Positions 15,095 to 48,686 of a DNA stretch of 57,471 nt are shown piece by piece. Every line of letters starts with the position of its first letter. Positions within the stretch are counted from its first letter, which is position 1. A program made the translations under genes and the position numbers. Source of the DNA: Candidatus Dojkabacteria bacterium (lineage in GTDB: Bacteria; Patescibacteriota; Dojkabacteria; GCA-002793355); NCBI GenBank assembly GCA_015489595.1, contig WFZK01000010.1, positions 1-57,471 on the forward strand, read 5' to 3'. The notes below the pieces were generated by a model. The model was not told the origin of the DNA, ran no database searches, and saw only the letters and a program-made list of their open reading frames with translations.

Positions 15095-15139
15095 CGGGCG
15101 GGGGCAAAATGTGGGGATACCACATTTTGCCCCCGCCCG
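15095..15139. repeat. Type-1 palindromic repeat (20 bp perfect stem, 5 nt loop)
   Basis: CGGGCGGGGGCAAAATGTGG-ggata-CCACATTTTGCCCCCGCCCG. Confidence 0.9.
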
Positions 15140-15229
15140 CAAAGTAACTTCCTTTTTCACAGTACTGCAGAGTCATCTACCAGCAGGATAATTCAAAACG
15201 GTTATGGGAATCAATTCTAGAAGGTTTAC

Positions 15230-15257
15230 GCAAAAATCGAAGAAAGCCGATTTTTGC
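15230..15257. repeat. Type-2 palindromic repeat, short copy (10 bp stem)
   Basis: GCAAAAATCG-aagaaagc-CGATTTTTGC. Confidence 0.7.
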
Positions 15258-16280: not shown

Positions 16281-17531
16281 ATGGTGCGAATTCGAACCGT
16301 AGGCATTCTCTATCTAGGGCATATTGTAATAAGACTTCTGGCCTTTCTTAGGTTTTACTTTCTTTCAAGAATTTACGGGGCCAATGCTATTACTGATAAA
16401 TATCTGCTTTTCCTACTTGCTATGGAAACTCTTGCTTCTCTTTTGGCTAATAACCATGTTATTTCTCTCCTTATGCGGTATTTGGGCGAGTTAAAACTTC
16501 CTTTAGAAAAAGCGGAGGTGTTTTCAGCCATTATCTTCCTTATTGTGCTGGGAGGCGGGCTGGGTGCGCTGGTGGTGGGAGTTGTTATGATTGTGCTTTT
16601 TGACTTTTCTGTCTTTGAAGGTATATTTGCTGGAATTATCGGTTACTTTTTTGTGGTTTCTGTCGCGATTCAGAGTATCTTAAATCACTTGGAGCAATAT
16701 GAATTGGTAGTGTATCAGGGCATTATAGGGCATTTGGTCTTGGTGATAGGCGTATTTTTGGGATCTCCTTTTCTTCTGTATGCTTCCCTTGCATTATTCG
16801 GGATTGTGCGTGTAGGGTTTGTGTTGATATTTCTTTTAAGAAAGAATTGGCTTAGCTTAAGGAGCTTCCTTTCGCTTAGTTTACACCTTTTGCCTAAGAA
16901 TCTTCTAAAAGAACTCGGCTGGATTGTGGTTTCTGTAGGGATGGGGATTGCTGTCGGCTTTTTTCAGAATTACATAATTCAAAAACATGGTGTGGGTTAT
17001 TTAAGCGCCTACAACTATGCTTTCCGATTAATTAGCGCGATTGCTGCTTTCGTTCTTATGCCTGTTGGGCCTGTTATTACGAATTATTTTATTAAGCTAA
17101 ACAGGGTAATTAAAAGAAGGATAATTAGAGTCTTATGGGTGAGGTTTATGTTGTTTAATCTCTCGCTGTTCGTTTTAGTGGGTTTTCTGTGGATTTTTGC
17201 TCCCTTTCTTATCAAGGTTATTTATTTTCACGGTGCATTTACTTATAAAAATTATGAGTTGACTTTGCGGTTCTTTAGGGCTTTGGTCGTGGTACTTTGG
17301 TCATTCAACCTGTTGAGTATTGTGGTGAAGGGCCTTTTAGTTATCCATAAGGTGACGATGGTTTTCATAGGGTATCTTTTGGGGAGTGCGCTATTCCTGC
17401 TCTTTTTTATAACTTGCGGTAATATTTTTTCTGCCCTGTTCTGGGGCTACCTCGCCTCAGGTGGAGTATTTTTGGCGCTAGGTTTTTTATTGCTTAGGAA
17501 TCTAGGGGCTTTAGTATCAGATAGAGGTTAA
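16281..17531 (+). CDS. MurJ/MOP-superfamily-like polytopic membrane protein (putative lipid II flippase)
   Basis: About 12 predicted TM segments. The N-terminus LLAFLRFYFLSRIYGANAITDKYLLF resembles the MurJ N-terminal pattern. Confidence 0.5.
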   Translation: MVRIRTVGILYLGHIVIRLLAFLRFYFLSRIYGANAITDKYLLFLLAMETLASLLANNHVISLLMRYLGELKLPLEKAEVFSAIIFLIVLGGGLGALVVGVVMIVLFDFSVFEGIFAGIIGYFFVVSVAIQSILNHLEQYELVVYQGIIGHLVLVIGVFLGSPFLLYASLALFGIVRVGFVLIFLLRKNWLSLRSFLSLSLHLLPKNLLKELGWIVVSVGMGIAVGFFQNYIIQKHGVGYLSAYNYAFRLISAIAAFVLMPVGPVITNYFIKLNRVIKRRIIRVLWVRFMLFNLSLFVLVGFLWIFAPFLIKVIYFHGAFTYKNYELTLRFFRALVVVLWSFNLLSIVVKGLLVIHKVTMVFIGYLLGSALFLLFFITCGNIFSALFWGYLASGGVFLALGFLLLRNLGALVSDRG

Positions 17532-17719
17532 TTAGGATGGATTACAGGGGTATTCCTCTCTAGGGTGTGGATTCATAGTGGGTTGAAAGGGTGTGGGGCA
17601 AAATATCTCAATACCGCATCCCCTCTTCGCCAAAGTGGGTTGATTTTTGTAGTACTGGAAAGCTGCCTGCCGATAGAAAGATTTAAACCACCAGAAGGAT
17701 AACAATCAAGGGAGCTGGG

Positions 17720-17745
17720 GCAAAATCGTCTTTTTCGATTTTTGC
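17720..17745. repeat. Type-2 palindromic repeat, weak copy (9 bp stem with one bulged T)
   Basis: GCAAAATCG-tcttttt-CGATTTTTGC. A degenerate type-1 copy, GTGTGGGGCAAAATATC..., lies at 17591-17625. Confidence 0.55.
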
Positions 17746-17760
17746 GTGTTCCCTAGGGTG

Positions 17761-17790
17761 TTTACTTGTTAGATTTAATGTATGTATAAT
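17761..17790 (+). promoter_or_regulatory. Candidate promoter of the RuBisCO gene (TTTACT, 18 nt, TATAAT)
   Basis: Hexamers read at 17761-17766 and 17785-17790. SD and ATG 17818 lie downstream. Confidence 0.45.
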
Positions 17791-17817
17791 GTAATGTCTA
17801 AGTTAAGAGGAAGATAT

Positions 17818-19146
17818 ATGGAGCAAAAGTATGGGGGGTACTCTTATTTGCATCTAGGTGAGAAAGTAGATGCGGAAAAGTTTTTAATAGCCAAGTTTTA
17901 TATAGAAAGTTCTCTGCCTTTGGAGAAAGCTGCTGAGGCAGTTGCGGCTGAAAGCTCTGTAGGGACTTGGACAAAGCTTACTACGATTGACGAACAGAGC
18001 CTTGCCCAGAAAGCTGCGAGGGTTATCGATATAGATAAACGGAATAACTTAGTAACGATAGCTTACCCCAATATTCTGTGGGAGAGGGGTAGTGTTGCGC
18101 AGCTTATGTCAGGGATCTCGGGGAATATCTTTGGGCTTAAGGAACTTAGAGCCCTAAAGCTCTTAGATGTGCGATTCAATAGAGAATACGTTAGGGGTTA
18201 TATAGGGCCAGCATTCGGCATTGAGGGGATTCGAGCCATTTTAAACGTGTACGATCGTCCTCTGTTAGGAACAATTATTAAACCGAAACTTGGATTGGAT
18301 CCACTACAGCACGCTAAGGTTGCTTATCAGGCGTGGCTTGGAGGAGTGGACATTGTAAAGGATGACGAGAACCTTACTTCCATGGATTTTAACAATTTTT
18401 ACAGAAGAATTAGACTTACTCTTGAGCTTAAGAGAAAAGCAGAACTAGAAACCGGAGAACGTAAGATTTATCTTCCGAATGTTACAGCAAAGCCAGAGGA
18501 GATGTTAAGGAGGGCTCAATTTGTAAGGCAGGAAGGGGGCAGAGCAGTGATGGTAGATATCCTAACGGCCGGGTTATCTCAGGTGTCCCAGTTGAGGGAT
18601 TATGACTTGGGGGTAGTCTTACATGGGCATAGGGCTATGCATGCGGCACTTACGCGTGATCCCAAGTGGGGTGTATCTATGATGTTTATTGCCAAGCTGG
18701 CTAGGCTTGCAGGAATAGATGAATTACATATTGGGACTGTTATTGGTAAGATGGAAGGGGGGAGAGATGAAGTATTAAGTATGCATAGATTCCTTCGCAG
18801 CCCATGGTTCGGCTTAAAGACTACAATGCATGTGGCCTCTGGAGGATTACATCCAGGACATGTAGAAGCACTGCTGGAAATATTGGGAGATACGGATGTA
18901 ATTATAAATATGGGGGGTGGCATTCATGGGCACCCTCAGGGTACTTATGTGGGGGCTAGAGCGGCAAGACAGGCTATAGACTTGGTGTTGTCTGGTAACC
19001 ATTTGGCTAAGGTTCTTGAGACTAAGCAGCCTCAAGAACTTTATCAGGCATTAAAGACGTGGGGGGTAGTGGACAAAAATGGAAGAGTCATAACTGAGGG
19101 AGTTGTAAAATCTTCTACTTATAGGCATGTTTTGGTCCAAGAATGA
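17818..19146 (+). CDS. rbcL: Ribulose-1,5-bisphosphate carboxylase large subunit, form II/III- or III-like
   Basis: ESSVGTWT, GTIIKPKLGL, VDIVKDDENL, LHGHRAMHA, ELHIGT, GKMEG, ASGGLHPG and MGGGIHGHP are all present. SD AAGAGGAAG precedes ATG 17818. The longer ORF from 17782 would contain the promoter. Confidence 0.9.
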   Translation: MEQKYGGYSYLHLGEKVDAEKFLIAKFYIESSLPLEKAAEAVAAESSVGTWTKLTTIDEQSLAQKAARVIDIDKRNNLVTIAYPNILWERGSVAQLMSGISGNIFGLKELRALKLLDVRFNREYVRGYIGPAFGIEGIRAILNVYDRPLLGTIIKPKLGLDPLQHAKVAYQAWLGGVDIVKDDENLTSMDFNNFYRRIRLTLELKRKAELETGERKIYLPNVTAKPEEMLRRAQFVRQEGGRAVMVDILTAGLSQVSQLRDYDLGVVLHGHRAMHAALTRDPKWGVSMMFIAKLARLAGIDELHIGTVIGKMEGGRDEVLSMHRFLRSPWFGLKTTMHVASGGLHPGHVEALLEILGDTDVIINMGGGIHGHPQGTYVGARAARQAIDLVLSGNHLAKVLETKQPQELYQALKTWGVVDKNGRVITEGVVKSSTYRHVLVQE

Positions 19147-21845: not shown

Positions 21846-22027
21846 GGGGTACAGACAAAACTTCGTAGGCTAACCTGCCCTGGGAGATTGGTTAATAAGA
21901 GAAGACAAGGAGGGTATTACAGCGCAGAAGTTGAGCCCCCTAAGCTTATTATTCTTCTGGCTGTTTTACATTTCCCCGTTGTTTGTGAACGATTTTTCGC
22001 TATTCCGCGTAAGGCAACCTACTTTAG

Positions 22028-22070
22028 GGCGTGGGGTAAAATGTGTCATTACCACATTTTGCCCCACGCC
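22028..22070. repeat. Type-1 palindromic repeat (18 bp stem including one T.G pair)
   Basis: GGCGTGGGGTAAAATGTG-tcattac-CACATTTTGCCCCACGCC. Confidence 0.9.
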
Positions 22071-22079
22071 AGTCATTAC

Positions 22080-22108
22080 TTTACTGCCACCGAAAATCCC
22101 CGTATAAT
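22080..22108 (+). promoter_or_regulatory. Candidate promoter of the GT2 gene (TTTACT, 17 nt, TATAAT)
   Basis: The -35 starts 9 nt after hairpin 22028-22070. ATG 22118 lies 9 nt after the -10. Confidence 0.5.
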
Positions 22109-23674: not shown

Positions 23675-24341
23675 TGTTTTCCTTCTCTAGGAAGTAGCCA
23701 TATCCGTACATGTTTTTAAGGTTGAAGTTAAGCTTTAGTTTCTTGAATTTCTGCCTTACACTCCAGGCTAATTTTGCAAGCGTTCCTCTTTTTCCGTTTA
23801 TTATTGGAGCCCGAGAATTTAAGAAATCGTGCCTGCAGACTCCGTATGTTAGTAGCCTGGTTATGAATTCTTTTTCTGCAGGTGTAAGCCTCACAAATTT
23901 GTTTTTATATACCATCAAATAGTCCAGTCCAGCATTACTTTGGTATATTTTTACTCCTTTTGGGAGCTTCGTTGTGTAATCTACGTTATGTTCTCTGAGT
24001 GTGAGGTTGGTGGCCTTTCTCTGACTAAAAAGTTTAATGTGAGTGAGAATGGTTTTTGCTACTTCTTCAACCATAAAAGGAAATTTGAAGATGGCAGCGT
24101 ATTCCTGTTCTAGAAGTGATAGCTTTTCTCGCAGGCTCTCCTTAAATACAATGGCATATTTTAAAGGTTGGTCGCTTTGGGATCTATTAGGTGAGGGTAT
24201 GTCTGTAATTGAGAATTCGCAACGAGGCTTTGGGGTTTCGGTTAAGTTTATGTTGTATTTTTTAAGTTGTGACTTTAGGAAGCTATAGAGACCGTCGCGC
24301 TGGATCTCTGCTACTCCGCATACTTTAAATCCATTTTTCAT
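23664..24341 (-). CDS. Orphan OmpR-type winged-helix DNA-binding protein with atypical N-terminal domain
   Basis: C-terminus LTPAEKEFITRLL...WSVRQKFKKL...MYGYGYFL fits trans_reg_C. The N-terminal half lacks recognisable receiver acidic-pocket motifs. Confidence 0.6.
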   Translation of the reverse strand: MKNGFKVCGVAEIQRDGLYSFLKSQLKKYNINLTETPKPRCEFSITDIPSPNRSQSDQPLKYAIVFKESLREKLSLLEQEYAAIFKFPFMVEEVAKTILTHIKLFSQRKATNLTLREHNVDYTTKLPKGVKIYQSNAGLDYLMVYKNKFVRLTPAEKEFITRLLTYGVCRHDFLNSRAPIINGKRGTLAKLAWSVRQKFKKLKLNFNLKNMYGYGYFLEKENTNH

Positions 24342-24505
24342 ATTCTATTATCTCTGAGCTTTCTTACAAAATTTTTGCAGTAGGGATGGGGGAACTGTAT
24401 TTTTATGGTAGTGGTCGGCGGTACGCTAGCAGGATAATTAAGCACAGACAATAGAGGGGGATTTTAGGGGGTATGTCAAAGCCGGTTTTTACGGTTTTAT
24501 CTAAG

Positions 24506-24560
24506 CTTAGGGGCGTGGGACAAAATGTCCTATTAACACGTTTTGCCCCACGCCCCTAAG
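24506..24560. repeat. Type-1 palindromic repeat (about 22 bp stem, one A/C mismatch, one T.G pair)
   Basis: CTTAGGGGCGTGGGACAAAATGT...ACACGTTTTGCCCCACGCCCCTAAG. Confidence 0.9.
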
Positions 24561-24589
24561 TTGACAGTTAAGCTTAGCCTTATTATCAT
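24561..24589 (+). promoter_or_regulatory. Promoter TTGACA, 17 nt, TATCAT; the ATG lies 5 nt after the -10 (leaderless geometry)
   Basis: The -35 abuts the last base of hairpin 24506-24560. ATG at 24595. Confidence 0.6.
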
Positions 24590-24594
24590 GTAAT

Positions 24595-26652
24595 ATGCGT
24601 GTAAAAGATGTTATTTTCTATAAGGATGTTTTGGCATCTGGATCAGAGTTCGTTACTAGCGAAGAGGTAGTGGGGCGTAAGGCGGAAAGTCTATTTAAGG
24701 CGGTGAAGTTAGGGCTCCCTGTCCCTCCTTTTTTTGTAATCACTACAAAGGTTTTTAATGACATTATAAAAGCCCTTACCACGAAGAAACAGATTAGATC
24801 TTTAGAACATTTGGTAGAGCTCTTAAATCAGATTCCTTTCCCTAAGCACGTTTTAAAATCAGTAGAGCGAGAATATTCTAAACTGTCTCTGTTGGGTAAA
24901 AGTTGGGTCGCTGTGAGATCTTCTATTTCGGCTCCTGAATATAGGAGCTTTAGCTTCAGTGGGATTTTAGACACCTATCTTAATGTAAGAGGGATCGACG
25001 AGATCGAGCTAGCAACAAAACATGTGTACGCATCTCTTTTTTCACCTACGGCTTTATCCTATATCAAGTCTAATAATATCTCCTTAAGTAAGCTTTCTTT
25101 GGCTGCTATCGTGCAGAAGATGATTACTTCCGAGATTTCAGGCCTACTGTATACCTATAATCCGGTTACGGATTCTAATGAGTATGTTACGATTGAGGCT
25201 GTTTTTGGGCTTGGAGACGTGATCGGTACAGGTGAGATCAATCCAGATGTGTATCTGGTGGATAAGGTTACTTTGGAGCTAGTAGAAAAAAGAGTGGTGC
25301 CACAGCAGTGGATGCGGACTAGAAAAGTCGGGGAGTTTACAGCGGAGGATTTTCATTCCACTAAGGTGACTCTTTCTCCGGTTTGGCAGTATGCTCAAAA
25401 GTTAAGTGATACGCAAATAAAAGAGCTTACTCAGCTGGCTATTTCTCTAGAGCAAGCTACAGGTGAGCATTATATCGTTGAATGGACATATTCCAGTGGT
25501 AGACTATATATCCTTCAGCTTAAGAAGGCTCCTATTAGTCTAGCTACTTTTTTCAAGCAAGCTCCTAAGACGCAAGAGACTCGTGCGGGTAAGAAGAAGC
25601 AGGGTACAACCCGAGGGCAGTTAATCCTTACCGGCATCCCTGTGGGGGGTGGTGTGATTGAAGGGAATGTTGTAGTTTTGACTCAGAGGATGATAAATAG
25701 CGGGCAAGCTTTAGATATAGGCAAGCACGATATATTGGTTACAGATTACTTTGACCCTCAGATTGAGAGGTATGCATTATCAGCAGGTGGTGTGATAGCC
25801 GACACGGGTGGGCCTAATGCTGATTTGGCTTTGCTATTACGTGAAAGTGGGATTCCAGCCGTGGTTTCTACCCGGGTGGCTACAAGACTTTTACGTACGG
25901 GTTCTAGGGTGCTTTTGGACGCTGATGTTGGGAGCATATACTTGTTGGAGGAGCCTAGGGAGGGGCAGGATAGACAGAATGTAAAGAAGCCTAAACGGTC
26001 GACTACTGAGCCGGTCTCAGTTCATAAGCCACAGCCTTATCCTATTGATGTGTATTTACCTCTGCCTGAGTGGGGGGCGTATTTTGTAAGACTAGGGGAG
26101 TATCCTTCGTTAAAGTGGGCTGAATACGACAGCGTGTTTGTAGAGATGGATAAAACAGACCTCCGGAAGCGAATTGGTTTTATAAAAAGGATAAAAGATT
26201 CTGGGGTCTCTACCCTTGTGGTAGGTGTACATTCTGATGACGCAAAGCAGTTCATAGAACTTAAGAAGAAGCTAACCAGTCACAAGATTATTAGAAGTTC
26301 TAGGGTTAAAATAGTCCCTGTTCTTGCTACCATTGCTCAGCTTTGGAGGATAGAAAGGTATCTGAAGTCTTTCGTAGATGGAGTGGTTCTTGATCTTCTA
26401 AAGATATACCTCGCTTATGGTGGGACTACATTTGATCCTAAAGATTCGAATTTCCGTGATTTTCTGGCTCCTCATGTAGAAAAGGTTAAAAAGGAAAAGT
26501 TTACTATTATGGGGGCTTACATAGATAAGCTGGACATCGCAGTATCTAAGCTTATAAAGCTAGGCTTTAATCAGCTAGTTGTGGTTGACTCAGAGTCCTC
26601 AGTGGAGAAGATAGAAGATCTTAGGGATAAGCTTTCTCGGGTAGTATTGTAA
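24595..26652 (+). CDS. PEP-synthase/PPDK-like protein (ATP-grasp N-domain plus swivel domain lacking the phosphohistidine)
   Basis: PPDK_N pattern GRKAESLFKAVKLGLPVPPFFVI and swivel-domain pattern GGPNADLALLLRESGIPAVV, where TSH is expected. Confidence 0.7.
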   Translation: MRVKDVIFYKDVLASGSEFVTSEEVVGRKAESLFKAVKLGLPVPPFFVITTKVFNDIIKALTTKKQIRSLEHLVELLNQIPFPKHVLKSVEREYSKLSLLGKSWVAVRSSISAPEYRSFSFSGILDTYLNVRGIDEIELATKHVYASLFSPTALSYIKSNNISLSKLSLAAIVQKMITSEISGLLYTYNPVTDSNEYVTIEAVFGLGDVIGTGEINPDVYLVDKVTLELVEKRVVPQQWMRTRKVGEFTAEDFHSTKVTLSPVWQYAQKLSDTQIKELTQLAISLEQATGEHYIVEWTYSSGRLYILQLKKAPISLATFFKQAPKTQETRAGKKKQGTTRGQLILTGIPVGGGVIEGNVVVLTQRMINSGQALDIGKHDILVTDYFDPQIERYALSAGGVIADTGGPNADLALLLRESGIPAVVSTRVATRLLRTGSRVLLDADVGSIYLLEEPREGQDRQNVKKPKRSTTEPVSVHKPQPYPIDVYLPLPEWGAYFVRLGEYPSLKWAEYDSVFVEMDKTDLRKRIGFIKRIKDSGVSTLVVGVHSDDAKQFIELKKKLTSHKIIRSSRVKIVPVLATIAQLWRIERYLKSFVDGVVLDLLKIYLAYGGTTFDPKDSNFRDFLAPHVEKVKKEKFTIMGAYIDKLDIAVSKLIKLGFNQLVVVDSESSVEKIEDLRDKLSRVVL

Positions 26653-37620: not shown

Positions 37621-37703
37621 CTAAGATAAGTTTCTTCTCCGTGGTAGTGGGGGTGCCTATCCGTGAGATCATTTAGAGCAGTAAGGAGAAGAGCAATTTT
37701 AAG

Positions 37704-37748
37704 GGGGACTTACGCAAAATCGACGTAGTCGATTTTGCGTAAGTCCCC
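37704..37748. repeat. Type-2 palindromic repeat (21 bp perfect stem, 3 nt loop)
   Basis: GGGGACTTACGCAAAATCGAC-gta-GTCGATTTTGCGTAAGTCCCC. Confidence 0.9.
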
Positions 37749-37755
37749 TTAAAGT

Positions 37756-37784
37756 TTGGCAGTATATTGTCAAAGTGCTAAAAT
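37756..37784 (+). promoter_or_regulatory. hrcA promoter TTGGCA, 17 nt, TAAAAT, overlapping a CIRCE-like inverted repeat (37756-37781)
   Basis: TTGGCAGTA-N8-AAGTGCTAA compared with the CIRCE consensus TTAGCACTC-N9-GAGTGCTAA. ATG 37790 lies 5 nt after the -10. Confidence 0.45.
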
Positions 37785-37789
37785 AATAT

Positions 37790-38569
37790 ATGGCCGCAGA
37801 GAAAAAGGAGATTGACCTTACTCCCAGACAGAAAAAAATTCTAGCTGCTTTAATAAAAGCTGTTATAGAGAGAGGAGAGGACATAAGCTCATTTGACCTA
37901 ATGAAGATAGAGAATTTTGATTTCAGTTCAGCTACCCTTCGGAATGAATTCCTGACACTCTCAAGAAGGGGTTTTCTTATAAAAACCCACTTTGCCTCCG
38001 GGCGTATTCCTACAATTAAGGCCCTCAGGTATTTCATCGAGCGTTTAATGGAAGAAAAAGCCCCCGATTTCTATGAGATGGTAGAGTTGAGTAATAGATT
38101 ATTCAAACAAAGGTTCGACCCACAACAGTTACTGCGCCTAGCCATGAAGGAGCTGTACTCTATGACTACAGCTCCGGTATTTATTTTGTATAACAATATT
38201 GTGCAGTTTTACAGGTTAAGTAGAATTTTACAGGGTAGAAAGAAGATTCAACACAAGCTAAGAGAGAGTTATTTAAATGGATTTGCTAAGCTTTTGGACA
38301 TTATTGAAGATCCTGAATTGTTTGGGTCGATTTTGGCGCGGGAGTTTACTCAGAGTGTTAGGGGGGTGGGAGTTTTCTCTGGGAGTAAGCTGGGGTGGAA
38401 AGAACTAGAGAGTTTCGTATTTGTGTACACCCCTTTTAGGCTATATCCAAGTAAAGATGAAATAGGTTATATTGGAGCATTAGGATATTTGAATCTTAAT
38501 TATCCGGTGGTGGTTCCAGCTGTTAGGGTTATAGGAGAGATGCTTTCTAACCTCTTGCGTGGCTGGTAA
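37790..38569 (+). CDS. hrcA: Heat-inducible transcription repressor HrcA (short form)
   Basis: N-terminal wHTH LTPRQKKILAALIKAVIERGEDISS...SSATLRNEFLTLSRRGFL...HFASGRIPT. Confidence 0.85.
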   Translation: MAAEKKEIDLTPRQKKILAALIKAVIERGEDISSFDLMKIENFDFSSATLRNEFLTLSRRGFLIKTHFASGRIPTIKALRYFIERLMEEKAPDFYEMVELSNRLFKQRFDPQQLLRLAMKELYSMTTAPVFILYNNIVQFYRLSRILQGRKKIQHKLRESYLNGFAKLLDIIEDPELFGSILAREFTQSVRGVGVFSGSKLGWKELESFVFVYTPFRLYPSKDEIGYIGALGYLNLNYPVVVPAVRVIGEMLSNLLRGW

Positions 38570-44758: not shown

Positions 44759-45979
44759 TTATTGTTCCTGCCCTAATGATGTTCGGTCATCATTGGATTG
44801 AGTGTACTTAGTTATGATGTCTCTATAGATGTAATAGGATCTTCTAGGTCTTCTCTTAAAGTTATTTTCATAATCGACTTCGATTAATCCGAATCGTGCA
44901 GAGAAGCCTTCTGTCCACTCGAAATTATCAAGAAGTGACCAGTGAAGATATCCTTTTATCTTTACCTTCTCTTTTTTCGCTTTCTCTAGGGCTTTGATAG
45001 TTTCCTTAATGAACCAAGGTCGGTGTTTATCTTTAGAGTCGGCTAAACCGTTTTCAGTGATAATTATCGGTTTGTTTAAGTGACCTAAATTTTTGAGCAC
45101 ATGGTATATGTTTTGGGGAGTAAGCCACCATCCCAAGTCGCTCACTCTGGTATTAGGATTTTTAATACGAAACTTTTTGAACTGGTTCGTAAAATAGTAG
45201 TTAATACCAAGATAATCTAAGTAGTTTTTAAGGTAGTATAGGGGGAGAAGTTGTATCCTGAAAGCCAATTTAGCTAAGAGATTGTCGAATATAAACAAAG
45301 GATTATTGTCCTTTTGGGCTTGGAACCATGCGATATTGAATACTAGTGTTACAGGTTTTTTGGGATTGAGTTTTTTAATGAATCGGTAGGCAACTTTATG
45401 AGTGCTGAGTAAATTGGTAAGTACGGTCAGGGTTTTAATAGGGGATCTTTTCTGAGGAGGCCACCTACCCTTAAGATAACTCTGGCTAGCACATACAATC
45501 GGCTCGTTAATAGTAATTATAGCATCCGTGAATCTATCAATATGAGGTAGTATGGCTTTTAGGTATTTGAGAAAGAAGTTAGTATTGTGTTTGTTCTCAA
45601 AGCCTCCTCTTTGGGCAAACCATAGTGGGAGGGTGAAGTGGTGTAGTATTACTAGAGTGTAGAGTTCATAGCTTTTCGCAGTTCTAAGAATATCTGTGTA
45701 TTTTGTTATTGCTCTCCGATCAATTGTGTTTGGACGGGGGAATATTCTGCTCCATTCGATGGAAAGTCTTATGGCATTTGATTTAAGCTTTTTGGCGGAT
45801 TTTAGGTCCTGTTTATAAAGTACCCAGAAATTAGCTGCTTTACCAGATCTATCCTTTGTACCATTGGGTTTCCCTAAGTTCCTGAGTTCCCAGTGCCACC
45901 AGTCAGCGTGTTTGTTTTCTCCCTCTACTTTGTATGCAGAGAGGGAGGTCCCCTATAAGAATTCTTTAGGAAAGCCCAC
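44759..45979 (-). pseudogene. GH1 beta-glucosidase interrupted by a single in-frame TAG at codon 9 (45953-45955)
   Basis: Manual reverse-strand translation is continuous: V-GFPKEFL*GTSLSAYKVEGENKHADWW...RLSIEWSRIFP...TINEP...ITENG...WSLLDNFEW. The TAG sits where GH1 has the conserved Trp of FxWG. The ORF track reports only the last 179 aa. Confidence 0.75.
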
Positions 45980-46114
45980 TTTCTATTTTAGCAATACTCT
46001 CTGATGGGTTCATCTCCAGGAGGATTGGGGGATAGAAAGGATACTCAGAACTAACTGATTGAAGTGGGAGCCGTAGGACTTCTAATCAGGACGTAGTTTA
46101 AAGGTTGAGACGAA

Positions 46115-46161
46115 GGGTCGTGGGGCAAAATGCGTCAATCTCGCATTTTGCCCCACGACCC
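46115..46161. repeat. Type-1 palindromic repeat (20 bp perfect stem, 7 nt loop)
   Basis: GGGTCGTGGGGCAAAATGCG-tcaatct-CGCATTTTGCCCCACGACCC. Confidence 0.9.
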
Positions 46162-46170
46162 GAATCCCCC

Positions 46171-46199
46171 TTGGATTGAGAGATTCTTTTCTGTATAAT
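46171..46199 (+). promoter_or_regulatory. Promoter TTGGAT, 17 nt, TATAAT driving tRNA-Glu (and probably lepB)
   Basis: Hexamers read directly. The tRNA 5' end lies 14 nt after the -10. Hairpin 46115-46161 ends 9 nt before the -35. Confidence 0.6.
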
Positions 46200-46212: not shown

Positions 46213-46284
46213 GCCGCCGTCGTCTAACGGCTAGGACAGCGGGTTTTCAACCCGTAAATCGGGGTTCGACTCCCCGCGGCGGCA
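46213..46284 (+). tRNA. tRNA-Glu (anticodon UUC)
   Basis: Acceptor GCCGCCG/CGGCGGC, D arm GTC-TAACGGCTAG-GAC, anticodon loop TTTTCAA, T arm CGGGG-TTCGACT-CCCCG, discriminator A at 46284. Confidence 0.85.
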
Positions 46285-46906: not shown

Positions 46907-47620
46907 ATGTATAAAACTACGGAGTGTGTGCTTGATGAAATAGAGGTTCCGGAGACTCTTCCTCGTAAAGTGGTCGATATCTCAGAATTGATGAGAAAAG
47001 CTGAATCATTAAGTAAGCAGGATCTCCCTCTGGTAACTGTTAACAATAAACTGCTAGTAGGAGAGCTCTACTACAGAGTTCTAAAGCTTAAGAATTTCAG
47101 GTTGGTAGAGTGCGTTGAGGCTACGGAGGTTAATGGCAAGATTTTAGCTTCGTTGTTAAAAGAGTATATTAAGAAGGGGTGGCTGAATATCATAGAAATA
47201 TCAATGGCCTTGGATTTCTTAAACAGGGTCAAAGGTATCCCTCAGAAACAATTAGGTCAAGTATTAGGTTTAAGCAGAGTGGCGGTGACCAATAAGTTGA
47301 GGCTGCTGAAGCTGCCTTACCAGGCTCAAGACGCATTAGTTAACGGGAAGATTTCAGAGGGGCATGCCAGAGCCTTGTTATCCTTAAAAGAAGAAGATTT
47401 ACTCGTATTCGCTTTAGAGCGAGTTTTACGTGAAAACTACTCGGTAAGAGAGACAGAGAAGCTGGTCAGGGAGATCTTAGGGAAAGAGAAGAAATCCAGA
47501 AGGCACGACGGTATTAGGGATTTTACAGCTGATACCTCCCTCAACAAGTTGGTTATAACTTTTGAGTCCCTGGATAGTCTTCAAAAGTTTGTTAGTCAGT
47601 GTTTAGCACGTAGAAAGTAG
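46907..47620 (+). CDS. ParB/Spo0J-like HTH protein with degenerate N-terminal arginine patch
   Basis: HTH region PQKQLGQVLGLSRVAVTNKLRLLKLPYQAQDALVNGKISEGHARALL. GELYYR stands where GERRxR is expected. SD AGGAG upstream. Confidence 0.65.
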   Translation: MYKTTECVLDEIEVPETLPRKVVDISELMRKAESLSKQDLPLVTVNNKLLVGELYYRVLKLKNFRLVECVEATEVNGKILASLLKEYIKKGWLNIIEISMALDFLNRVKGIPQKQLGQVLGLSRVAVTNKLRLLKLPYQAQDALVNGKISEGHARALLSLKEEDLLVFALERVLRENYSVRETEKLVREILGKEKKSRRHDGIRDFTADTSLNKLVITFESLDSLQKFVSQCLARRK

Positions 47621-48554
47621 ACCTCCCTTTACCCATCCTGCGGATGAGTCCTAGCTTTTCGAGTTTTTTTAGGTCTCTAAAGGCTGTCATGAATGAGACA
47701 TTCAGTTCTTGAACGCAATCTGCTCTGGTTATTCTACGTTTTCTTCTAAAAAGTGAGAGTAGCTTCTTTTGTCGGTACATTAGCTGATAATCAAGAGTTT
47801 GACTGGCTTTAATCAGGGTTTTAGCAGAATTATAGAGAAGTTCTGCTTGATTTAGGGTTTGTTGAACAAAATTAGTGAACGTGGCTTTTTTCCCGTAGGT
47901 TTCAAGAATATCAAGTATTAAGCTACACATAGGGATTAATTGATAAAGGGAACTATATTTAGAGGAGATCACGATAAATTTTGCCAACGCTAAAGCGGTG
48001 TGCAGATTCATGTCAATAAATGGACACAAGAATGACAGGTTAGCGGTATAATAGAAAGCCCCGATCAGGGGGTGTTCGGGCTTGTAGCCCAGTAGCTCTG
48101 AAAGGCTAGATACTGTATTGGTGCCGAAGTTGTTGTGAAATTTAATGGCTTGATATTTCCTTTGCGGTTCTTCGTAAGGGTTGCGGATTCTTCCTCTTTC
48201 CCAATACTCTAAGATGTTTTCTGCAAGTATAGAATGGGTTTGTTGAATCGTCGCCAGGTTTAATTCTGTTTTCTGAGTGGAGGTGTAAAACCTTAGTACG
48301 TTCCTGTAGTTTATAAGGAGCCTCACCGCGAGATCCTTTTGCATTGGATTTGGGTTTTTAATGTATTTTTTAAGCTGTGCTTCATCTAGTTGTATTCCTG
48401 AAGCTTTAAGTATACACTTGGCTTCCTCAAGCTCTATTTGTTTTTTAAAGTGCCTGAGTACTTTACCTTTAGCCATTGAGGCTATTTTGCTAAGCAGGGA
48501 GTGTATATCGATTAATAATACTGTGTCCTTTTCTGTTACGAACATGTTACGCAA
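47592..48554 (-). CDS. Fic-fold protein with degenerate Fic motif and C-terminal winged HTH
   Basis: CPFIDMNLHTALAL aligns to HPFxDGNGRxxR with four key substitutions. The C-terminus RITRADCVQELNVSFMTAFRDLKKLEKLGLI is wHTH-like. The start may be ATG at 48545. Confidence 0.5.
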   Translation of the reverse strand: MRNMFVTEKDTVLLIDIHSLLSKIASMAKGKVLRHFKKQIELEEAKCILKASGIQLDEAQLKKYIKNPNPMQKDLAVRLLINYRNVLRFYTSTQKTELNLATIQQTHSILAENILEYWERGRIRNPYEEPQRKYQAIKFHNNFGTNTVSSLSELLGYKPEHPLIGAFYYTANLSFLCPFIDMNLHTALALAKFIVISSKYSSLYQLIPMCSLILDILETYGKKATFTNFVQQTLNQAELLYNSAKTLIKASQTLDYQLMYRQKKLLSLFRRKRRITRADCVQELNVSFMTAFRDLKKLEKLGLIRRMGKGRSTFYVLNTD

Positions 48555-48583
48555 GTATACTTTGTGTTCGACTTCTTTACAAG

Positions 48584-48637
48584 TTAGGGGGCTGTGCCAA
48601 AAATCGGAAAGTCTCGATTTTTGGCACAGCCCCCTAA
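48584..48637. repeat. Type-2 palindromic repeat (23 bp perfect stem, 8 nt loop)
   Basis: TTAGGGGGCTGTGCCAAAAATCG-gaaagtct-CGATTTTTGGCACAGCCCCCTAA. Confidence 0.9.
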
Positions 48638-48666
48638 TTGCTTTACCTCCCTTTGTTTATCATCCC

Positions 48667-48675: not shown

Positions 48676-48686
48676 AATCCAAGTAC

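Follow-up and report, generated by a model that had tools for sequence, protein, structure and literature searches.

Highly repeated palindromes of intergenic DNA are known from several bacterial lineages, and those closest to the element considered here are the repetitive extragenic palindromic sequences (REPs) of enterobacteria and pseudomonads, together with the bacterial interspersed mosaic elements (BIMEs) and the REP doublets forming hairpins (REPINs). All of them are GC-rich, extragenic, and lineage-specific, combine two types of hairpin into mosaics by way of conserved linkers, and place many of their copies just after stop codons. The same features are found in a family of palindromes from a Candidatus Dojkabacteria bacterium (assembly GCA_015489595.1; 825 kb, 42% G+C, 47 contigs, 93% complete). 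The window analysed here is one whole contig of this assembly (C10, WFZK01000010.1), with a length of 57,471 nt, and the element under study is the palindrome at 24506–24560, which lies between two divergent genes and directly adjoins the promoter of one of them. It is a member of a family of 164 hairpins that stand alone or form the ends of a mosaic repeat, and many of which lie just upstream of promoters, a placement that is real and non-random.

Nevertheless, there are clear differences from the REP, BIME, and REPIN families, since the hairpins are longer here (~40–60 nt), the core that joins them is longer as well (60–85 nt), and no REP-associated tyrosine (RAYT/Y1) transposase was found in the assembly. 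Many stems run on into TTAGGG, GTAGGG, or ATAGGG, and the flanks, which often read (G/T)TAGGG, may recall the GTAG tag of REPs. Classical REPs are located mainly between unidirectional and convergent open reading frames (ORFs; PMC3733652), whereas in this genome divergent spacers are equally occupied and half of the copies are flush with a promoter. By its divergent occupancy, by its promoter-flush half, and by the RAYT that was not found in the assembly, the family is a REP/BIME variant and not a plain member of that group.

Other described systems share part of these features. Correia elements of Neisseria (NEMIS or CREE) and the BOX and RUP repeats of pneumococci are also small intergenic repeats often located just upstream of genes, and they can affect the expression of adjacent genes. 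Correia elements carry promoter-like boxes, an IHF site, terminal inverted repeats, and a TA duplication, whereas the repeat described here has no internal promoter box, and a duplication was not seen at its junctions. The subterminal hairpins of IS200/IS605 insertion sequences (IS) and their miniature derivatives, the palindrome-associated transposable elements (PATEs), are similar in having a short core between two imperfect palindromes that differ from each other, and in the conservation of the inner stem and loop, which structure-specific recognition would lead one to expect; however, neither TnpA nor TnpB was found in the assembly, and a cleavage-site tetranucleotide is not defined here. 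Bidirectional intrinsic terminators and the terminator–promoter junctions of compact genomes likewise present a GC-rich hairpin right after a stop codon and right before the next promoter, but in this genome the U- or A-tract is absent and hairpins also occupy divergent spacers.

The mosaic repeat and its distribution

A genome-wide scan for hairpins (stems of 13 bp or more, no more than 2 mismatches) returned 281 hairpins, among which the 164 of the GC-rich family fall into two types, A and B. Type A can be written as GGGCGTGGGGCAAAATGTG-loop-CACATTTTGCCCCACGCCC and is conserved in sequence, while type B, GGGGCTGGGGCAAAAATCGA-cttttt-TCGATTTTTGCCCCAGCCCC, has an outer stem that is highly variable (CTCACGC, CTTACGC, CTTTAAGC, and others) yet complementary throughout. 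The palindromes share a conserved inner half-site, either GCAAAAATCG or GGGGCAAAATG, and have arms of 17–27 bp. Their centre is AT-rich and their arms are GC-rich, a base composition that would suit cruciform formation.

The distance from A to B is often 70–85 nt and, when composites are aligned, it is bridged by a conserved core module, of which 95–99 copies were collected over the genome by iterated nhmmer. Closely paired hairpins number 33, and the repeat unit is a ~180-nt mosaic of hairpin A, core, and hairpin B, which occurs together with halves and solo hairpins; truncated copies are common. The midpoint lies inside a called ORF for only 5 of the 164 family hairpins, mostly at ORF ends, and the family is therefore extragenic. 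Small ORFs of 61–92 aa that run across the repeats were judged spurious, as their strand relative to the repeat is inconsistent. Moreover, the 7-nt loop of type A can lie either way round (tcattac or gtaatga) with respect to the core to which the hairpin is attached, as at 22046–22052, C4:1095, and C8:14006, a flip-flop that would be expected if the palindrome were occasionally extruded or copied as a hairpin.

Stem mismatches show no strand bias, with 24 GT versus 27 AC whichever strand is taken as sense, and this equality rules out strand-specific RNA-level selection on the hairpins. The plus strand of the core, which is G-rich, folds better in 78 of 93 copies, but with a z of only -0.65 versus shuffles, and RNAalifold did not return a consensus structure for the core module, which is at best a doubtful candidate for a structured RNA. 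The Rfam search of the whole window at the gathering threshold yielded tRNAs only, and a search at relaxed E-value of a 401-nt stretch with a composite (17450–17850) gave nothing credible. The orientation of the core relative to genes (34:21) shows no significant bias, and the quality of the hairpins is independent of position, with promoter-proximal copies no better preserved than the rest.

The repeat is absent from the relatives searched. A 183-nt composite had no BLAST match in 40 relatives, and a pattern search for both hairpin types found neither in 220 other genomes of the class, including 10 of the same family; genomes sampled from this class are mostly 0.6–1.7 Mb in size, which, like the form II/III-type RuBisCO encoded in the window, agrees with a Patescibacteria-like organism of the candidate phyla radiation (CPR). 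A relative of the same family with a complete genome (G004), of which 400 kb was read, contains no long GC-rich palindromes in that portion, and two syntenic junctions that measure 286 and 190 nt in the present genome are 18 and 47 nt long in this relative.

Hairpin position relative to promoters and stop codons

The promoters next to the hairpins follow a grammar that is common to most of the genome. TATAAT-like hexamers end 5–6 nt before start codons in 69 + 37 cases, versus a background of ~3–7, and promoters aligned on their -10 box read T-n-TG-n-TATAAT, with a weak TTG 23 nt upstream that corresponds to a 17-nt spacer; this TTG is present at the -35 position of promoters both with and without the repeat. 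Since the hexamers end so close to the start codons, most genes would be leaderless or nearly so, as judged from the sequence, and ~355 genes fit this pattern. Some genes, such as the one encoding RuBisCO, have a leader of ~20–30 nt and a Shine–Dalgarno-like box. The same leaderless grammar is found in the 400 kb read from G004. Canonical intrinsic terminators, with a GC stem and a T-run, are found at 27 of 370 gene ends here versus 11 in shuffles, and at 4 of 143 gene ends in G004 versus 2.6 in shuffles; a Rho gene is present (C3:25427–25636), and termination in this family of genomes is probably mostly factor-dependent or unconventional.

The hairpins keep a preferred distance from these predicted promoters. 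A gene start preceded by a good -10 box is faced by 98 hairpin sides, and in 62 of these the stem ends 20–34 nt before the start of the -10, with a mode at 32–33 nt and a sharp upper cut-off, no side being found at 36–39 nt; counting from the last G:C pair gives a mode of 31–34 nt (32 of 98). Because the -35 hexamer starts 23 nt before the -10, the stem end lies 0–11 nt upstream of the -35 position. Another 21 copies, a minor class that includes the one at 15095, end 0–15 nt from the -10 and replace the -35 region. Genes with leaders of 20–35 nt show the same hairpin-to-(-10) distance, and therefore the anchor is the promoter and not the start codon. No helical phasing of 10–11 nt between the hairpin centre and the promoter was found within the spread of 0–11 nt.

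Spacers with room to spare show that this placement is not imposed by lack of space. In 43 spacers of the stop–repeat–promoter kind with at least 60 nt free, 32 clusters lie within 34 nt of the -10, versus 12.3 expected from uniform placement, a number that none of 20,000 simulations reached; 22 of the 43 lie at 20–34 nt, with 5.3 expected, and only 6 lie by the stop codon. Simple compaction is ruled out, since repeat-free tandem junctions, whose stop codons spread from -60 to +12 relative to the -10 and mostly from 20 inside to 12 outside, have no pile-up of stop codons at 20–35 nt. Divergent spacers are informative as well, because 22 of the 31 that bear hairpins have one at 20–34 nt from a -10 box, which upholds the statement of the preliminary description that the hairpins cannot be terminators of an upstream gene; the consistent placement that it describes in the window likewise holds across the genome. 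Some divergent spacers have one hairpin per promoter (C5, C23, C36, and C40), others a single hairpin in common, as on C1, at 32 nt from both -10 boxes, and at 48582 in the window (~23 + 30 nt), and where a divergent spacer is roomy, a lone hairpin stays close to one of the two promoters, as at 24506 and 46115. In tandem junctions, 157 leaderless-type promoters carry no repeat. A hairpin accompanies 14 of 44 tRNA promoters and 71 of 368 others, a difference that is not significant (p=0.07).

The hairpins have another preferred position, directly at the stop codon. Approximately 40 of 82 hairpin sides that face 3' ends begin within 9 nt of the stop, and a TAA or TAG stop is often part of the TTAGGG/CCCTAA tail of the hairpin; of the 24 convergent spacers that are occupied, 20 contain a hairpin at -7 to +10 nt from a stop codon. 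Among the 164 hairpins, 82 are within 34 nt of a -10, 36 are within 10 nt of a stop, and 50 are in neither group, with 4 counted in both. The proportion of occupied spacers of at least 40 nt is 33% for tandem, 33% for divergent, and 30% for convergent ones. This stop-codon position, as well as the mosaic context in which the palindromes are the ends of a ~180-nt repeat, was missed in the preliminary description.

The repeat itself carries neither promoter nor terminator signals. The DNA between the hairpin and the -10 is not conserved and shows no junction motif, and no conserved outward -35 or promoter box was found inside the repeat. A TTG near the stem is present on 45% of promoter flanks versus 26% of other flanks, the latter equal to background, so that the hairpin-proximal TTG is tied to the presence of a promoter and not to the hairpin. 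The suggestion that the palindromes belong to a mobile module with its own outward-facing promoter is not supported by these observations, because the -10 is linked to the start codon and the same grammar exists in G004, which has no such palindromes in the 400 kb read. No U-tract or T-run was found after the stem, the downstream flank being TAAA-like, and a terminator scan picked up no hairpin of the family; without a U-tract, the hairpins are ruled out as canonical intrinsic terminators.

Individual copies and neighbouring genes

The palindrome at 24506–24560 is a near-perfect type A copy, with 23-bp arms and a 9-nt loop. The adjoining host promoter and leaderless start of a gene similar to PPDK or PEP synthase occupy 24561–24597 on the plus strand, with TTGACA (24561–66) in direct contact with the palindrome, a 17-nt spacer, TATCAT (24584–89), 5 nt, and the ATG at 24595. 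The divergent gene has its leaderless start at 24339–24352 on the minus strand (GATAAT 24352–24347, AGAAT, and ATG 24341–24339), and the hairpin is thus 23 nt from one -10 and 153 nt away on the divergent-gene side. The seven palindromes that had been described just upstream of -35 positions in the window are all present, with hairpin-to-promoter gaps as reported. Moreover, the spacers of 24506, 46115, and 48584 are divergent, as had been claimed, with starts at 24341(-)/24595(+), at the GTG 45979(-) of a glycoside hydrolase family 1 (GH1) gene/tRNA-Glu(+), and at ATG 48545(-)/tRNA-Ser(+), respectively. The best three promoter-like matches in 14.9–24.7 kb, at 24561, 17761, and 22080, all follow hairpins.

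Several of the other copies retain the core. The type A palindrome at 15095–15139 lies 13 nt from the TGCTATAAT of an ftsE-like gene (15084–15076, minus strand), whose -35 position is inside the stem, and is followed by a core module (15151–15211, plus strand) and, on the side away from the promoter, by a remnant of a type B palindrome (15230–15257), with the inner stem intact and the outer one decayed. The composite upstream of the RuBisCO gene consists of a degenerate type A hairpin (17585–17619), a core module (17644–17700, plus strand), and the imperfect type B palindrome that is its partner (17715–17745), after which come TTTACT at 17761, 18 nt, and TATAAT (17785–90). A core module on the minus strand (21951–22015), beyond which a truncated arm of type B lies towards the stop codon, precedes a type A palindrome at 22028–22070, located 32 nt before TATAAT (22103–08), with TTTACT at 22080 in the -35 position and 17 nt between both boxes. 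The core module at 37633–37691 (plus strand) is next to a type B palindrome (37699–37753) that ends 25 nt before TAAAAT (37779–84); the promoter reads TTGGCA at 37756, 17 nt, TGCTAAAAT, 5 nt, and ATG at 37790.

The two remaining copies of the window are associated with tRNA genes. The type A palindrome at 46115–46161 lies in the divergent spacer between the GH1 gene (minus strand) and tRNA-Glu (46213–46284, plus strand), and is followed by TTGGAT at 46171, 17 nt, TATAAT (46194–99), and the tRNA at 46213; it is 32 nt from the -10 of tRNA-Glu versus 124 nt from that of the GH1 gene. The type B palindrome at 48582–48639 is common to two divergent promoters. On its minus side, TATACT (48559–54) is ~23 nt away and serves a DeoR-like gene with its ATG at 48545 on the minus strand, whereas on its plus side TGCTATAAT (48667–75) contains TATAAT (48670–75), 30 nt away, upstream of tRNA-Ser at 48686.

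The same reading of the sequence affects the annotation of some neighbouring genes. The window encodes a form II/III-type RuBisCO, whose gene, a seeming exception to the leaderless pattern, has TATAAT at 17785–90, a leader of ~20 nt, and AAGAGGAAG located 6 nt before the ATG at 17818; the start given by its longest ORF (ATG 17782) overlaps with the -10 box and is probably incorrect. The gene with a DeoR-type helix-turn-helix (47592–48559, minus strand) has its longest-ORF start at TTG 48554, and its start is most likely ATG 48545, since TATACT (48559–48554) lies 8 nt upstream and fits the leaderless grammar. The GH1 gene (44759–45993, minus strand) is longer than its 179-aa ORF and shows a leaderless TGCTAAAAT-AGAAA-GTG arrangement, with the GTG at 45979–45977. 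Its N-terminus reads FPKEFL-TAG-GTSLSAYKVEG, with an in-frame TAG (45955–45953) at the expected conserved Trp of the N-terminal motif, which could be a nonsense mutation (in a pseudogene), a strain variant, or a sequencing error.

Two further observations concern the genome outside these copies. The 286-nt junction (C7:1345–1631) of the present genome (G000) comprises a core, a type B hairpin, and, directly after the hairpin, a new leaderless-type promoter (TTGACT-N17-TACACT), and corresponds in G004 to an 18-nt junction (~294,861–294,879, L037) led by a Shine–Dalgarno sequence; it is possible that an operon has been split by the repeat at this place. The 8-mer TAAGCT[TA]A, which contains a HindIII-type palindrome, has 424 copies on both strands versus ~87 expected from composition, and occurs within genes and in leaders just after -10 boxes (for example at 24568–24575, 43572, and 52672); it could, for instance, serve in DNA uptake or as an architectural motif, or it could reflect restriction-modification.

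Origin of the placement and its significance

The explanation that we prefer, and hold tentatively, is that of a REP/BIME-like repeat for which the edges of transcription units are places of insertion or of survival, next to promoters that are the host's own. The palindromes are the hairpin ends of a lineage-specific mosaic repeat that fills about one third of the spacers of at least 40 nt in this 0.83-Mb genome, and the neighbouring promoters would be leaderless or short-leader promoters of the host, of the (TGn)TATAAT type with a weak -35, older than the repeat. An intact hairpin lies flush with the upstream edge of the promoter, its stem ending 0–11 nt before the -35, at ~-36 to -46 from the start site, with a position flush with a stop codon as its alternative resting place. 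These edges may be where the element inserts or can persist, either because it favours the DNA that borders on RNA polymerase bound to a promoter or, alternatively or jointly, because copies that intrude on the core from -35 to +1 are selected against. The equal occupancy of all spacer types, the unbiased orientation and mismatches, the truncated copies, and the restriction to one lineage are signs of a selfish repeat. Moreover, the 157 repeat-free tandem promoters, the position-independent hairpin quality, and the relatives without the repeat weigh against a required function. We do not consider the hairpin to be a functional component of the promoter, which neither comes with it nor requires it.

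Several observations weigh against this explanation. We infer mobility, as well as the reason for the edge-seeking. No sister genome with empty sites was found: the exact type A pattern had 0 matches in metagenome contigs, the search for close relatives gave 0 exact matches to the RuBisCO protein, and a scan for related loci retrieved only a 48%-identical homologue. Neither the Y1/RAYT transposase (PF01797), for which control genomes do score, nor TnpB, TnpA, or IS110 had a match in the 93%-complete assembly, where the sole transposase remains, fragments of DDE and rve type, lie at the ends of contigs and apart from the repeats. The repeat junctions showed neither a target motif nor a target-site duplication, nor are they conserved, and the repeat does not match miniature inverted-repeat transposable elements, which are characterized by terminal inverted repeats, a target-site duplication, and a related autonomous IS. 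The genes and promoters are predicted by crude ORF and consensus calls, with transcription starts unmapped. Promoters beside hairpins have better -35 hexamers (3.72 vs. 2.92 matches, p=7e-4), with TTG in 40% of hairpin-side versus 22% of repeat-free promoters, the latter being those with non-coding DNA upstream. In halves made of a hairpin and a core, the intact hairpin is on the promoter side in 21 cases and on the stop side in 3 (p=3e-4), the distal hairpin being often visibly truncated. Finally, type B stems vary widely and yet remain complementary. A purely selfish element does not obviously explain these last three observations.

The promoter-side intact hairpins and the complementary type B stems would fit a repeat co-opted as a boundary or insulator at both ends of the transcription unit, where it would block or stall polymerases coming from outside, be it by read-through or in making antisense or spurious transcripts, or absorb the supercoils driven by transcription as cruciforms, a possibility that we consider less likely but still plausible. 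An internal AUG without a Shine–Dalgarno sequence on a read-through transcript is poorly translated, and such a boundary would protect leaderless promoters, whose mRNAs are translated only if they start at the start codon. The 118 of 164 hairpins at an edge of a transcription unit, the clusters that hug the promoter despite spare room, and the rarity of canonical terminators point in the same direction. However, the hairpins have no U-tract, divergent spacers receive no read-through and are nonetheless occupied as often as tandem ones, which is unexpected for a pure read-through blocker, the 157 tandem promoters do without the repeat, promoter-proximal hairpins are no better preserved than others, and such hairpins are missing from the portion read of G004, whose promoter grammar is the same. 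A role as terminators or 3'-end stabilisers of the upstream gene, adjacent to promoters only through the compactness of the genome, is improbable. It would agree with the hairpins that start within 9 nt of a stop codon, with minimal tandem spacers that consist of stop, hairpin, promoter, and start, and with the presence of Rho, but it is already contradicted for divergent spacers, 31 of which bear hairpins, and for roomy ones, where clusters lie by the promoter in 32 cases and by the stop in 6; the missing U-tract and the repeat-free junctions without a pile-up of stops at 20–35 nt also speak against it.

An operator or architectural site, through which a dimeric DNA-binding protein would act on RNA polymerase at the adjacent promoter as an activator, a repressor, or a positioning factor, seems slightly less probable still. 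The two-fold symmetry of the sites, their conserved inner half-site immediately upstream of the -35, and the better-than-average -35 hexamers next to them are what such a site would show; on the other hand, the spacing varies over 0–11 nt, with a class that overlaps the -35 and no phasing of 10–11 nt, the sites occur in about one third of all spacers, convergent ones included, and are missing from another 157 leaderless-type promoters in tandem spacers and from relatives with the same promoters, and the outer stems covary, which indicates pairing and not sequence read-out. Least probable of all, and by now largely refuted, is a mobile module with its own outward-facing promoter, like Correia elements and IS ends. 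TTGAC abuts the hairpin tail in a few copies, where T residues of the tail may supply part of the -35 (as at 24561), and the Shine–Dalgarno-led junction of G004 corresponds here to a hairpin with a new TTGACT-N17-TACACT promoter. Nevertheless, the -10 depends on the start codon in a grammar that predates the repeat, the sequence from the hairpin to the -10 is unconserved, TTG is at background on flanks without a promoter, and a weak TTG occurs in the same position at promoters without the repeat.

A broader proposal, which we regard as rather doubtful, is that a once-mobile, lineage-specific palindrome has become a general boundary device of transcription units in this heat-loving CPR bacterium with leaderless mRNAs, acting at the DNA level. 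Its hairpins would be flush with the -35 of about one quarter of the promoters that lead such units, including back-to-back ones, and with stop codons, and could form cruciforms, take up supercoils, or stand in the way of polymerases, in contrast to a classical operator or RNA terminator.

Repeats of the REP type are generally portrayed as belonging to gene 3' ends and as avoiding divergent spacers, whereas the repeat described here takes a sharp and statistically solid second position at the edge of leaderless promoters and does so in all spacer types. If this position reflects an insertion preference, it would be an unusual case of a bacterial repeat that targets promoter edges; if it reflects a function, it would show how a genome nearly devoid of canonical terminators and of Shine–Dalgarno-led operons delimits many single-gene units. 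In either case, the hairpin edge shows directly how far upstream the promoter extends (~-36 to -46) in an uncultivated lineage, and the hairpins are a practical annotation marker for the boundaries of transcription units in this lineage.

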